A DNA stretch of 32,000 bases from Mycoplasma mycoides subsp. capri. GTDB lineage: Bacteria; Bacillota_I; Bacilli_A; Mycoplasmatales; Mycoplasmataceae. Position numbers and translations under genes: made by a program. Location: contig NZ_CP065581.1 of the NCBI RefSeq assembly GCF_018389705.1, forward strand, positions 90,001-122,000, in the 5' to 3' direction. This document shows positions 15,582 through 27,523 of this stretch, piece by piece. Positions within the stretch are counted from its first letter, which is position 1. Every line of letters starts with the position of its first letter. Under the pieces are notes generated by a model. That model worked only from the letters and a program-made list of their open reading frames with translations, did no database searches and was not told the DNA's origin.

Positions 15582-15677
15582 TTTTACTTTTACTAAAGTT
15601 ATCAAATATCACTTTACAAAAAAAAAAAAAAAAAAAGCAAAACAACTAGTACTCATCACACTTTCTAGTTATTAAGC
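15582..15677 (-). promoter_or_regulatory. L2 5' cassette: hairpin, T19 tract and -10-like box. It probably also acts as the terminator for L3.
   Basis: The plus strand carries A19 at 15618-15636. The hairpin region spans 15637-15677 (GCAAAACAACTAGTACTCATCACACTTTCTAGTTATTAAGC, inner stem AACTAG/CTAGTT). TAAAAT on the minus strand lies at 15582-15587, 31 nt after the tract. The ATG is 100 nt after the tract. Confidence 0.55.
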
Positions 15678-15781
15678 TTTTATATTATGTTTTTTTAAAT
15701 AGGTTTTTATTAGTTTTTATATAGGTAACTTTTGAAATATTATTAACAATATTTTAAAATAAATAAATTAAATTCAATTTA

Positions 15782-17626
15782 CTATTTATTTAATTGTATT
15801 AAAACTCTTTTTAGTTTAGAAGTTAAAAGATCTGATACTCATTTTCCTTCAAAAGTTAAATATTTTTTACTTTCTTTGGTTCTATGAATTACTTTAGGAA
15901 TATATTCATTTAAAACTTTTTTATCTGTTTTTTCTAGCAATTCTTTAATTTCTTCATTTTGTTTTTTATTTTGTTTAAGTCATTCATCAAGATCAGGTTC
16001 ATTTTTATTTGTATTTGGAATTAATCCTTCTAGATCATTAATAAAGTCATTAATTGCATCTTCAGTTTCTTCTCTATCGATTTGAGCATCAATTTCTTTT
16101 TTGATTTTGTTTATTTCATCATCTCATTTTTTAAACTCAGCTTTTAATGCATCATCTAATCTATTAATTTCTTCATTAAATTCTTTACTGAAATCTTCAG
16201 CTTCATCTTTTTCAACTAGTTTATCAATTTCATTTTTAACAGCATTTGGTTCTGCTCATTCTTTGTTTTCAACATCTGTATTTGGAGTTAAATCTCTTAA
16301 ATCACTGATAAATTTATCTGTAACTTTTTTTATAAATTCTTTATGTTTTCTATTAGCTCAATCAGATTGTTCTTTATCAGTATTTGGAGTTAAACTAGCT
16401 AAATCATCAAAGAATTTAGCAATTTCATCTTCGATTTCTTCTTTTTTGATTAACTCATCAATTTCTTTTTTAATTTCGCTTGGATATGCTTTTTCATCTA
16501 ATTCTTTTTCTAAAGCATCACTAAATTTAGAAATTTCAATAAGTAGATCTTCTTCATTTTCTTTATCAATTTGAGCATCAATTTCTTTTTTGATTTTGTT
16601 TATTTCATCATCTCATTTTTTAAACTCAGCTTTTAATGCATCATCTAATCTATTAATTTCTTCATTAAATTCTTTACTGAAATCTTCAGCTTCATCTTTT
16701 TCAACTAGTTTATCAATTTCATTTTTAATTCTTGATTCTCAATGATTTATTTCATTTCTTAAAGCTTCATTTAATCTTGACATCTCACTATCAAAATCTT
16801 GAGATTCTTCTCTATCGATTTGAGCATCAATTTCTTTTTTAATTTTGTCTTCAGCTTTTTTATCTGCTCAAGATTTATTTTCAGCATCAGTATTTGGAGT
16901 TAAATCCTTTAAATCATTAATAAAATCTTTTATAGCTTTATCGTGTTTTCTATTAGCTCAATCAGATTGTTCTTTATCAGTATTTGGAGTTAAACCAGCT
17001 AAATCATCAAAGAATTTAGCAATTTCATCTTCGATTTCTTCTTTTTTGATTAACTCATTAATTTCATTTTTAACAGCACTTGGTTCAGCTCATTCTTTAT
17101 TTTCAGCATCAGTGTTTGGAGTTAAATCTCTTAGATCTTTAATAAACTTAGCTTCTGCATCCTTTTTGTTAGCTTCTTCTTTTTTCTTAGCTTCAGCGTC
17201 TTTTTTATCACTTCAAACTTTATTTTCAGCATCAGTGTTTGGAGTTAAATCTCTTAGATCTCTAATAAAATCTTTTATAGCTTTATCATGTTTTCTATTA
17301 ACTCATTCAGCTTGTTCTTTATCTGTATTTGGAGTTAAATCTCTTAGATCTTTAATAAACTTAGCTTCAGCCTCTTTTTTATCATCTTTTTTATTTTTAG
17401 AACTATAACTAAAAATATCAGCTCCAGTTATACTGTCTCTGAAAATGTCTTGTCAAGTAGATTTAGATTTGTTTATAGTAAAGTTATTTGGATCAGTAGG
17501 TTTTATTATTTCTTCTTCTTTTTTAATTTCAGAAGAACTTACATTAGTTTTATTATAAGAAACAATTACACTTGCACCTGATGAAATAATTGCTAAACTT
17601 CCTAATATTGTTAATAATTTTTTCAT
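15782..17626 (-). CDS. Secreted or anchored repeat protein L3 (614 aa). It is a family member whose signal peptide lacks the lipobox Cys.
   Basis: ATG at 17624-17626 and TAG at 15782-15784. The length is a multiple of 3, and both ends were translated by hand in one frame. It is invisible in the ORF track because a TGA falls about every 40-45 codons. The N-terminus reads MKKLLTILGSLAIISSGASVIVSYNKT. The body is made of DLRDLTPNTD..W modules and 44-aa helical modules. Confidence 0.8.
16081..16728 (-). repeat. Internal duplications in L3, in-frame
   Basis: Segments 16081..16239 and 16570..16728 match at an offset of 489 nt (163 codons). Segments near 16351-16470 and 16951-17070 match at an offset of 600 nt. 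The LTPNTD module sequence (tatttggagttaaatc...) recurs at least 7 times between 16270 and 17345. Confidence 0.8.
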
Positions 17627-17673
17627 ATATTCACACCTATATTTTTAATCTGTTTTTAGACACATTAATACTA

Positions 17674-17768
17674 ATTTTAATGATTAAAATTTATGTGAAA
17701 TATATTTTTGCAAAAAAAAAAAAAAAAAAAAACAAAACAGCTCAGTACACATCGCATATCTTGTTTTT
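17674..17768 (-). promoter_or_regulatory. L3 5' cassette: hairpin, T21 tract and -10-like box. It probably also acts as the terminator for L4.
   Basis: The plus strand carries A21 at 17712-17732, the longest tract in the array. The hairpin region spans 17733-17768 (CAAAACAG...CTTGTTTT, with loop CTCAGTACACATCGCATAT). TAAAAT on the minus strand lies at 17674-17679, 33 nt after the tract. The ATG is 85 nt after the tract. Confidence 0.55.
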
Positions 17769-24850: not shown

Positions 24851-24928
24851 TTATATTATGTTTATTCAATTATATTAACTTTAATCTTAAATTTATAAAT
24901 TATAGGTGTGATTTTTATTTTATTAAGA

Positions 24929-27370
24929 CTATTTTTGGTTTAACAATTTGATAGATTCTTTTAATTTAGCTATAGCTTTTTCTATTTCTTTAATTTTTTC
25001 ATCTTCTTTTGATTCTAAACTATGAGCTTGTTTTTCTAATTTTAGTAATTCATCTTCATATTGTTGTTTAGATTCTAAAATGATTTTATTAGTTGAGTTT
25101 TCAAATTCTTTAATAGAATTTAAAATTTCTTCTTTTTGTTTTTCTAAACTTAATTGATCAGAAGTATATTGATCAATTTGCGCAATTATTTGTTTTTGAA
25201 GTTCACTATTTGAAGTTATTTCTTCTTCTAAAGTTTTTAGATTATTTGTATATAATTCTATATTTTTATTAGTTTTTACAACTTCAGGATTGATATCAGA
25301 TAGTTGTTTATCAATTTTGTTTTTTTCTGCATTAAGTGGTTCTAAAGATTTTGTCATTTCTGAAACTTCAGCTTGTATTTTTGTATTTTGCTCTTTTAAT
25401 TGCTTAATTTTTTCTATATTTTGTTGTTTTGTTGTTTGTAGTTCTTTTTCTAGGTTTTTTATAATGTTAGGAACTTCTTTTTTTAGTTCATTGTTTCCAT
25501 AAATATAGTTTTTCAATCTAGCTATTTTATTGTGATTAAATCCAGTTCATAAAGTTCAATCACCATAATCATAGAATCATAAATCAGAATCATAAGTTTC
25601 TTTTTTTAGATCATCTATAATTTTTTCATACAATTTATTCTCATCATCTAATTGTTTTATAATAACTTTTTCTTCACTAAGTTCTTTATCTAATTCTTTT
25701 TCTATATCTAAAAGTTTTTTTTCTTTATTGTTATTATCTGTTATTAATTTATTTTTAGATTCAATTTGTTTATTAATTGAATCTATTTGACGTTCTAGAT
25801 CTTTAGCTTGGTCTAAAACTTTATTATGTTCTACTTGTTTATCTTGATTTTCTTTAAGAAGTAATTTAGCCTCTTCTAATAATTCAGTAGAATCCTTAAT
25901 TTCTTCTTTTATTTTTTCTTTTTGATCTTTAAGTTTAGGTAATTCTAGTGTTATTTTATCTAGTTTTGTTTCATTTTCAGTTTTTCTATTTTCTAGACTT
26001 TGTTTTCCAGTTTCATACTCTTTTTTAAGTGTTACAAGATTATTAGTTGCTAGTTCTTCTAGTTCTTTTTCTTTATTGTTATATTCTTTTTCTATTCTAG
26101 TTCTTTCTAAAATGTGAGTATTTACTTCTTCATTTAATTTAGCTAACTTAGTTTCAAGATTATGTTTATATTCATTAACTAGATTATATTTATCATTAAA
26201 TAGTTTTTCAGCTGCTTTTGCTGATTCTTTAGCATGAGTATCACCATGTTTTTTGTATCTTTCAACTGCTTGTTTTACTAAATCACTAAATTCATCACTA
26301 AATAATTCAATTGTTGCTTTTGCTGATTCTTTAGCATGAGTATCACCATGATGTTTGTATCTTTCAACAGCCTCTTTTACTTTATTTGAAAACTCATCGC
26401 TAAAGATTTCTTCAGTAATTTTTGCCGATTCTCTAGCATGAGTATCTCCATGATGTTTGTATCTTTCAACAGCCTCTTTTACTAAATCACTAAATTCATC
26501 ACTAAATAATTCTTTAGCAGTTTGACTTGCTTTAATTGCCATTAAATTAGCAAAATTATCTTTATAGTTTTTATCTAGTATTGCTTTAAGTTGATCTTCT
26601 TGTTTTTTGTTTTCAGCTTCAATTTGTTCTTTTGTTAGATAAAAGTTAATATCAGCTCCAGTAGGACTATCTCTAAAGATTCGATCATATTCTATTTTAA
26701 TTAGATAATCAAAAAGTGCTTGGTTTTCTCTTTTATTTTTATCTAAGTATTCTTTAACTCAATCTTCTAATCTTTTTTCTTCTTTTTCAATTTGTTTTTT
26801 AGTTGGGTTTAGATTAATATCAGCTCCAGTAGCACTATCATTATAAACGCTGTATCAAGTAGTAGTTGATTCACCTGGTTTAGTTTCAGGTTTGTTTGTT
26901 GGAATAGATGGTTGAAGTGGAGTTAAAGGTCTTGAATCATTTCTATTATCATCAGGTTTATGTGATGGAGTATTTGGTTTGTCTGGTTTTTTTGGAGTAG
27001 TTGATTCGTTTGGTTTAATTTCATTATTAGGTTTAAATGGACTACCATATATAAAACTTGAATTATGAATTGTTCCAACTCATGGACTTGGATTACCACT
27101 TACAAAATGTCTATTAAAAATAGTATGTGGATAAGTTTTTGAATCATAATTGTTGGTTGGTTTTTTATTATCATCAGGTTTTTTATCTTCACTTGGAGTT
27201 TTTTCTTCATCTGTTTTATCAGGTTTTTTAGAACCACCACCATTAGATGGATTTTCATCTTTGTCTTTATTTGTAGGTTGTTTAGTACTTGGAGTTTTAC
27301 ATGCAATAACTAATGCAGCCCCGCTTGTACTAATCATTATTGACCCTAATATTGTTAGTAATTTTTTCAT
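24929..27370 (-). CDS. Modular coiled-coil surface lipoprotein L7 (813 aa) with a His-rich triple repeat
   Basis: Fragments 27080..27370, 25577..26542 and 24929..25516 are in one frame (codon starts = 2 mod 3). I hand-translated 27002-27082 across the TGA. The N-terminus reads MKKLLTILGSIMISTSGAALVIAC-K, followed by a long Pro/Lys/Asn-rich linker, two DSxTGADIN modules, a 3 x 34-aa HHGDTHA repeat and a coiled coil. TAG lies at 24929-24931. Confidence 0.85.
26190..26530 (-). repeat. 3 x 102-bp (34-codon) tandem repeat in L7
   Basis: The marker 'gctgattc/gccgattc' starts at 26220, 26322 and 26424, a spacing of 102 nt. It encodes ELFSDEFS(D/N)(L/K)VK(E/Q)AVERYK(H/K)HGDTHA(R/K)ESAK.... Confidence 0.85.
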
Positions 27371-27429
27371 ATATTCACACCTATATAATTAAAAAATAAA
27401 TACTTTTATCTTAGTATTTGTATGTTAAA

Positions 27430-27523
27430 ATTATATATTTGCTAATTTAACAAAAGATCCTTTGTAAAAAAAAAAAAAAAAGCAAACAAACCTAGTACAC
27501 ATCGTACTTTTAGTTGGCTATGC
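27430..27523 (-). promoter_or_regulatory. L7 5' cassette: hairpin, T16 tract and TATAAT. It probably also acts as the terminator for the upstream membrane-protein gene.
   Basis: The plus strand carries A16 at 27466-27481. The hairpin spans 27482-27523 (GCAAACAAACC-TAGTACACATCGTAC-TTTTAGTTGGCTATGC) and starts 15 nt after the stop at 27539. TATAAT on the minus strand lies at 27430-27435, 31 nt after the tract. The ATG is 95 nt after the tract. Confidence 0.6.

Follow-up and report, generated by a model that had tools for sequence, protein, structure and literature searches.

The closest system yet described is a locus of Mycoplasma mycoides subsp. capri strain 95010, in which each gene of a family related to M. 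agalactiae spma, and absent from subsp. mycoides SC, is preceded by a GC(T)17-20 motif lying 88 to 113 nucleotides (nt) from the ATG (Thiaucourt et al. 2011, BMC Genomics 12:114, PMC3053259). The function of the motif was given as unknown; Additional file 6 of that paper lists GC(T)18, 18, 17, 18, 20, and 18, plus a GC(T)7 beside rpsT, and a GC(T)16 was noted for MCAP_0042 of M. capricolum (PMC3053259). Here, we analyze a 32-kb stretch of M. mycoides subsp. capri DNA (the window; 24% G+C), in which six tracts of T16-21 on the minus (coding) strand each precede a gene of this family. The window comes from another strain, and nothing essential differs from the description of 95010: the site (between two membrane-protein genes, after secA, and rpsT), the family, and the motif are the same. 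Our own counts on 95010 (17, 18 four times, and 20, plus T7) reproduce the published set. The observation of tracts at this locus is already known, and as it stands their presence in the window is the rediscovery of a published motif. New here are the anatomy of each tract as a predicted terminator tail, a T7 counterpart in a genome that lacks the array, the fixed spacing between tract and -10 hexamer, and a comparison of strains; the 2011 paper contains neither the hairpin, nor the spacing, nor the between-strain comparison.

The M. agalactiae spma genes are themselves each preceded by poly-G (Nouvel et al. 2010, PMC2824730), and their phase variation is still a presumption in a 2025 paper (PMC12103780). 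In the M. agalactiae locus that we compared (L009, from a genome of 29.5% GC), tracts of G8-10 lie just after a small hairpin and, in five of six cases, 3 to 11 nt before a -10-like hexamer and 49 to 60 nt from the start codon. This locus and that of the window share homologous MAG6090-repeat proteins, a tandem array, and a 5' homopolymer after a small hairpin, but their signal peptides differ, and the G8-10 tracts fall in the spacer zone whereas T16-21 lies at about -43. Poly-G in so A+T-rich a genome would be hard to explain except by selection for the homopolymer as such, which makes a contingency function of the family more probable a priori.

Three known repeats lie between -35 and -10 and act as spacer switches: the poly(A) of M. 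hyorhinis vlp, the poly(T) of M. arthritidis maa2, and the repeat of vmm (PMC2268961). The vlp, maa2, Vmm, and Vmc systems (the last two in M. mycoides and M. capricolum) resemble that of the window in that a repeat prone to slippage lies 5' of mollicute genes for surface lipoproteins, but in them one repeat unit alters the spacer, whereas the window tract ends 30 to 32 nt before the -10 hexamer. The spma poly-G is probably also a spacer switch. Repeats farther upstream are found elsewhere: the (GAA)n of M. gallisepticum vlhA acts from upstream of -35, and the poly-C of Bordetella fim and the TAAA repeats of Neisseria nadA lie upstream of the core promoter; in all of these, repeat length presumably determines where, or in which phase, an upstream site stands relative to RNA polymerase. 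Length-dependent expression has been demonstrated for these three systems, some of which have known binding proteins; the repeat in the window is, in addition, a predicted terminator tail. A cautionary counter-example is M. agalactiae vpma, where a T tract beside the promoter of a variable-lipoprotein gene was shown not to phase-vary, switching occurring by Xer1 inversion (PMC2268961). A or T tracts of 14 to 17 nt precede 28 surface-protein genes of M. yeatsii and are perhaps "mutationally exploited" (PMC4408338).

The preliminary description of the window had reported six long tracts, and a recount matched their coordinates and lengths exactly.

27466..27481, minus strand: T16 tract, position A, in the cassette of an 813-amino-acid (aa) gene; orthologues of 16 to 18 in seven strains
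24792..24808, minus strand: T17 tract, position B; orthologues of 14 to 20 across strains
22201..22216, minus strand: T16 tract, position C; orthologues of 15 to 17 across strains
19667..19682, minus strand: T16 tract, position D; orthologues of 16 to 20 across strains
17712..17732, minus strand: T21 tract, position E, preceded by TTTTG, not GC; orthologues of 17 to 21 in complete genomes
15618..15636, minus strand: T19 tract, position F; orthologues of 17 to 19, among them T17 in GM12 and T18 in CP065586

Among the homopolymers of the window, these six are a class apart. By direct count they are the only A or T runs of at least 9, no other such run exceeds 8, and there is no G or C run of at least 6 in the 32 kb; the earlier statement that nothing else comes close to the tracts was correct. 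Homopolymer lengths are bimodal, with the class of 9 to 15 empty. A first-order Markov model of the window predicts 0.0035 A runs of at least 16, versus 6 seen, and about 24 T runs of at least 9 on the plus strand, versus 0 seen. For most genes in the window, a plus-strand T run would be poly-A in the coding sense. The missing runs suggest strong selection against slippage-prone runs in coding sequence.

The tracts are pure, with no interruption in about 50 cassettes compared across strains, and are preceded by GC in four of the six cassettes, GCC in one, and TTTTG in one. From tract end to ATG there are 95, 97, 88, 88, 85, and 100 nt, which agrees with the 85 to 100 nt reported before. Each tract lies upstream of a minus-strand gene beginning MKKLL..., so the earlier assignment of one tract to each family gene is borne out, and the tracts are specific to the family. 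The purity of the tracts, the missing runs of 9 to 15, the poly-G of M. agalactiae, and the tracts of M. yeatsii together argue for selection for the homopolymer as such.

A -10-like hexamer had been placed 31 to 33 nt after each tract, and we found one after each, with TGn at 19630-19638 and 22164-22172. TAWAAT begins 30 to 32 nt past the end of the tract in 29 of 30 distinct cassette sequences (drawn from nine M. mycoides genomes and M. feriruminatoris), including all six in the window.

27430..27435, minus strand: TATAAT, putative -10, 30 nt past the position-A tract
24756..24761, minus strand: TATAAT, putative -10, position B
22164..22169, minus strand: TAAAAT with TGn (TGGTAAAAT), putative extended -10, position C
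19630..19635, minus strand: TAAAAT with TGn (TGATAAAAT), putative extended -10, position D
17674..17679, minus strand: TAAAAT, putative -10, position E
15581..15586, minus strand: TAAAAT, putative -10, position F
13176..13181, minus strand: TATAAT, -10 of a 466-aa gene, 65 nt past a T7

The hexamer is followed by some 50 nt of leader, which carries a hairpin of its own, and then by an AGGTG ribosome-binding site and the start codon. No consistent -10-like hexamer nearer the tract, as in M. agalactiae, was found across the aligned cassettes. A sigma-70 consensus scan of the window was uninformative (79 promoter-like sites versus 94 expected from shuffles).

If TAWAAT is the -10, the tract occupies the zone from about -43 to -60, as had been proposed, and its position fits that of an UP element; the pattern T-run/NN/AAA is similar to the UP consensus of E. 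coli. The tract lies outside the -35/-10 spacer, in agreement with the preliminary description, and a spacer mechanism of the vlp or Vmm type is therefore excluded. In the transcriptome of JCVI-syn1.0 (syn1.0), -10 boxes are TANAAT and there is no fixed -35, the -35 region being merely AT-rich (preprint 10.64898/2026.09.08.750226). The family genes, which in syn1.0 would be about MMSYN1_0083-0091, are not named in the text of that preprint.

The tract belongs to the downstream gene because it keeps a fixed spacing to the downstream -10, whereas the upstream stop codon can be as near as about 10 nt or as far away as about 250 nt. Two further observations lead to the same assignment: the last family gene (466 aa) has a normal T7 terminator, and a hairpin in a genome without the array has only T7. 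Given that the promoter-proximal end of the tract is fixed, gain or loss of T moves only what lies beyond it, that is, the hairpin or distal upstream contacts.

That hairpin is predicted in all six cassettes. Folding with shuffles placed an imperfect two-tier hairpin directly 5' of each tract, its 5' arm starting with an A-run (AAAAGC...) and its 3' arm ending in ...TTTGC and the tract's first T. The folding free energies (dG) range from -10.4 to -15.3 kcal/mol, with internal loops, and z from -1.8 to -3.4.

27477..27528, minus strand: terminator-type hairpin, dG -15.3, z -3.2, right after the stop of the membrane-protein gene at 27539-28330
24810..24850, minus strand: terminator-type hairpin, dG -13.2, z -2.3, its inner stem also flagged by a terminator scan
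22213..22261, minus strand: terminator-type hairpin, dG -14.1, z -3.4, about 250 nt past the upstream stop and beside the downstream promoter
19679..19713, minus strand: terminator-type hairpin, dG -11.5, z -1.8
17728..17768, minus strand: terminator-type hairpin, dG -10.4, z -2.1
15633..15681, minus strand: terminator-type hairpin, dG -14.0, z -3.0
13247..13275, minus strand: ordinary terminator, used as control, with an 11-bp stem, a loop of 4, and T7, z -4.1; it precedes the seventh family gene

As judged from these folds, each tract is the 3' tail of a hairpin composed of A-run, stem, and T-run, the architecture of an intrinsic terminator. An alignment of 30 hairpins by MAFFT put the stems out of register, and per-sequence folds and shuffles were used instead. 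The consensus terminator scan picked up only one inner stem of the six hairpins, and Rfam gave no match at the cassettes at E <= 1. Outer-stem sequences differ among the six cassettes. The loop and inner-stem core GTRCGATRTGTAC (...CGAT...) is better conserved than the outer stems among diverged paralogues; such a conserved core is unusual in a plain terminator and could mark a candidate binding site. In two other strains, the 5' arm of the hairpin is replaced and the tract kept. At position G of 95010 (about 16350-16400 of locus L005), the hairpin loop contains an inserted perfect palindrome of 30 nt, rich in GC (GTACCCCCTTGTCCGGACAAGGGGGTAC), and the tract is T18; at position C of CP065575 (8526-9900 of locus L012), the gene of an insertion sequence (IS) transposase ends about 90 nt before the tract, which is T15.

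Intrinsic terminators are the rule in syn1.0, where they close 76% of the canonical operons examined, with a median poly-U of 6 (preprint 10.64898/2026.09.08.750226). Those terminators share the order of A-run, stem-loop, and T-run with the window cassettes but have a median U6 compared with T16-21, and the window stems are long, imperfect, and GC-poor. A more direct comparison comes from CP143993.1 (1.196 Mb; locus L016), where the array is absent and the membrane-protein gene abuts rpsT, an arrangement also described for MmmSC PG1 (PMC3053259). At 9730-9780 of that locus, a hairpin identical to window 27477-27528 follows the membrane-protein gene, with a tail of T7 only. The hairpin is thus probably a terminator for which seven T are enough. 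The extra 9 to 14 T are, in the sequences compared, confined to predicted hairpins with a family gene downstream. M. feriruminatoris has one cassette without a long tract, reading TTTTGC-T6-GTAAAG.

This anatomy bears on a serious rival to any switch, namely that the tract is a terminator tail together with a generic A/T-rich upstream flank, that its exact length is irrelevant above a threshold, and that its polymorphism is neutral slippage. The long U tract would then compensate for a weak, GC-poor stem, and all cassettes would have inherited it from one expanded ancestor. The terminator architecture in six of six cassettes and the same hairpin as putative terminator of the membrane-protein gene in the array-less genome fit such an account, as does the fixed promoter-proximal end, which means that the geometry between -43 and about -50 stays the same when the tract slips. 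Also in keeping with it are the unimodal tract lengths given below, the retention of a tract by a pseudogene, the T tract of vpma without a switching role (PMC2268961), and the prevalence of intrinsic terminators and the merely AT-rich -35 region in syn1.0 (preprint 10.64898/2026.09.08.750226). However, seven T appear to be enough for the same hairpin elsewhere and for the last terminator of the family, and, with the genome at 76% A+T, an UP-like flank needs no pure homopolymer. The window otherwise strongly avoids long pure runs; the tracts are pure and confined to the family; they are fixed relative to the downstream promoter and not to the upstream stop codon; and the poly-G of M. agalactiae can be neither a U tail nor an UP element. 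We give neutral slippage of a terminator tail a substantial chance of being the whole explanation, though one that falls short of even.

We compared tract lengths among the window strain, GM12, 95010, CP065584, CP065582, CP065575, CP068010, CP065577, and CP065586. Orthologous tracts in complete genomes measured 14 to 21 overall, and those at position G, 16 to 18; the T7 control terminator (13247..13275) had a length of 7 in every strain examined. Between CP065577 and CP065575, the 6261 aligned nt contain 0 mismatches, and the sole gap is a tract (T18 versus T16). Between CP065584 and 95010, there are 2 mismatches in 5400 nt, and the sole gap is the position-D tract (T16 versus T20). The GM12 tracts measure 18, 20, 16, 16, 17, 17, and 17, and in consensus genomes derived from GM12, three ambiguous N calls fall on the base right after a tract. 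The preliminary description had proposed such a comparison, holding that invariant lengths would count against its claim; the lengths are not invariant and change far faster than the flanks. These alignments support tracts that are hypermutable relative to their flanks, between strains.

Since long homopolymers are error-prone, we considered whether the tracts might be artefacts of sequencing or assembly. In draft GCA_000339035.1, N gaps adjoin two of the tracts and one length call is a doubtful T25; its differences from the window (16 to 17, 16 to 17, and 21 to 25) were discounted as strain variation, the draft having N gaps beside tracts and 100% identity elsewhere. Tracts are found at the same sites in every independent genome, however, the 95010 counts match the published figure, and over two tracts an independent contig shows 100% identity to the window. 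That the tracts exist is effectively settled, and an artefact is extremely improbable, although single length calls may be off by about 1 nt.

The tracts might instead be hot spots of recombination or rearrangement at cassette boundaries (gene conversion, duplication, or deletion) with no part in the control of transcription. The boundary between presence and absence of the array, as seen in CP143993.1, falls exactly at the T run, and the number and content of the array genes vary between strains. In CP065584 (locus L006, upstream of 16431), a 747-aa gene variant lacks the 3' half of the hairpin, the tract, and 13 nt and keeps the -10; the loss is a deletion between TTAAAAGT direct repeats. 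IS elements and the GC-rich palindrome lie immediately upstream of tracts in 95010 and CP065575, and Thiaucourt et al. mentioned suspected rearrangement roles for the poly-G tracts of M. agalactiae (PMC3053259). Against this, homology between cassettes spans the region from hairpin to signal peptide, and homologous recombination needs no homopolymer; the only deletion seen used flanking direct repeats and not the tract; and the fixed 30 to 32 nt between tract and -10 would be left unexplained. We consider this explanation improbable.

Our favored explanation is that a terminator tail has been turned into a contingency repeat. The module would consist of an A-run, a two-tier stem-loop, GC, (T)16-21, about 30 nt, TAWAAT, a leader of about 50 nt with a hairpin, AGGTG, and a conserved signal peptide, and each such module would be the 5' expression unit of one spma-like (MAG6090-repeat) surface-lipoprotein gene. 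The hairpin and the first few T would form an intrinsic terminator that insulates the gene from its upstream neighbor; the remaining T would be surplus to termination and would form an A/T-rich promoter flank from about -43 upstream. A pure T16-21 would slip often and so produce the fast drift in length that is seen between strains. A change in length may then alter transcription of that gene, either ON/OFF or in a graded manner. The core promoter being fixed, slippage could shift and rotate the inverted repeat of the hairpin, or any factor bound there, with respect to it; alternatively, slippage could alter upstream contacts of the polymerase. Each gene of the array would then be a contingency gene that switches on its own.

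Whether changes in tract length switch or modulate the downstream gene at all we regard as evenly balanced. Our fuller proposal is more tentative, and we think it rather unlikely to hold in every part: that an over-long terminator tail was co-opted as a contingency repeat acting from -43 to -60, that length changes alter the distance or phase of the GTRCGATRTGTAC inverted repeat relative to the promoter, and that the genes switch independently while read-through from an ON neighbor is blocked.

Several points weigh against the contingency explanation. The link from length to expression is one that we purely infer. The promoter-proximal end of the tract is, as far as the aligned cassettes indicate, fixed, and length changes would only displace the hairpin. 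No site for an activator or a repressor is known to us, and transcription factors are few in mollicutes. Tract lengths are unimodal, mostly 16 to 18, without visible ON and OFF classes, and a disrupted gene (13283-15517) retains its T19. Homopolymers of 16 to 20 are error-prone in several sequencing chemistries. Five GM12-derived assemblies (LS4835xx) have identical lengths, which carries little weight either way; these genomes look reference-guided, with scattered N, and are not independent evidence of stability. The T tract of vpma shows no phase variation (PMC2268961). In the overall interpretation given by the preliminary description, family specificity, a geometry outside the spacer, and fast length change between strains have stood; we infer ON/OFF switching.

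JCVI-syn1.0 derives from M. mycoides subsp. capri, a pathogen of goats. If the contingency explanation is true, the Vmm/Vmc type controlled by (TA)n is joined in this organism by a second family of surface lipoproteins that switch independently. Such a switch, acting from farther upstream than the core promoter and joined to a terminator, would be distinct from the spacer switches of vlp, Vmm, and Vmc; it might also account for the A/T tracts of 14 to 17 nt before the 28 surface-protein genes of M. yeatsii. It would bear on immune evasion, on the choice of vaccine antigens, and on promoter design in synthetic mycoplasma genomes. The M. mycoides genome can be edited in yeast and transplanted, and is unusually suited to tests of tract function; the CP065584 variant of the 747-aa gene that has lost its tract provides a natural strain suited to the same purpose.

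The family genes form a tandem minus-strand array of seven, each beginning MKKLL..., flanked on one side by secA and two membrane-protein genes and on the other by rpsT and mnmE. Open reading frames (ORFs) were called with genetic code 4 (TGA = Trp); calling with table 11 was dropped, as it split family genes into fragments.

24929..27370, minus strand: 813-aa MAG6090-repeat lipoprotein gene (NF045950, 145.6 bits)
22511..24694, minus strand: 727-aa lipoprotein gene of the family, internally repeated in tandem, without a match to the MAG6090 repeat
19740..22112, minus strand: 790-aa MAG6090-repeat lipoprotein gene (NF045950, 270 bits, 5 repeats)
17887..19578, minus strand: 563-aa MAG6090-repeat lipoprotein gene, orthologue of MLC_0810 and MCAP_0042
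15782..17626, minus strand: 614-aa family gene whose signal peptide is without the lipobox cysteine (...VIVSYNK...)
13283..15517, minus strand: disrupted family gene, with a 144-aa N-terminal ORF (15083-15517) and a 276-aa C-terminal ORF (13283-14113)
11733..13133, minus strand: 466-aa member of the family, lacking both a long tract and the MAG6090 repeat

The related database proteins are named "MAG6090-like repeat-containing lipoproteins" and come from M. mycoides (subsp. capri, GM12, and JCVI-syn1.0) and M. feriruminatoris, and M. agalactiae homologues were retrieved when the repeat region was the query. The MAG6090 repeat of NCBIfam (NF045950; curated cut-off of 25 bits) exceeded that score in four of the six genes that carry a tract, including the 563-aa protein (74.9 bits) and the 144-aa ORF (53.6 bits) in addition to the two whose scores are listed above. 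It fell below the cut-off in the 614-aa protein (19.7 bits) and had no match in the 727-aa and 466-aa proteins. These three belong to the family by their signal peptide, C-terminal coiled-coil region, and position in the array. LP_plasma (NF038029) reached its cut-off of 24 bits in all six genes with a tract but that of the 727-aa protein, which fell just short at 23.8 bits, and matches to NF045726 indicate a Vmc-like signal-peptide module, shared with the Vmm/Vmc type. A literature search by locus tags found no paper, and genome-contig profile searches with the MAG6090 repeat alignment and with the flanking membrane protein gave no matches.

A lipobox, ...VIAC(K/G), is present in five of the six tract-bearing genes, the exception being that of the 614-aa protein, which lacks the cysteine in all strains and probably, to judge by its signal peptide, is not lipid-anchored. 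Its 95010 orthologue, MLC_0800, is annotated as a transmembrane protein (PMC3053259). The internal tandem repeats of two genes vary in copy number across assemblies and strains, giving products of 451 to 616 aa for the 614-aa gene and 226 to 727 aa for the 727-aa gene; these differences could be either protein size variation or repeat collapse in draft assemblies. The GM12 counterpart of the disrupted gene is likewise split (137 + 375 aa), and CP065586 carries an intact 655-aa gene in its place. Between the 466-aa gene and rpsT, at 11543-11669 on the minus strand, lies a stretch with a sub-threshold Rfam match to the Mycoplasma small RNA MCS4 (35.7 bits versus a gathering threshold of 56, E = 0.12); the array-less CP143993.1 has about 130 nt of unrelated sequence there.

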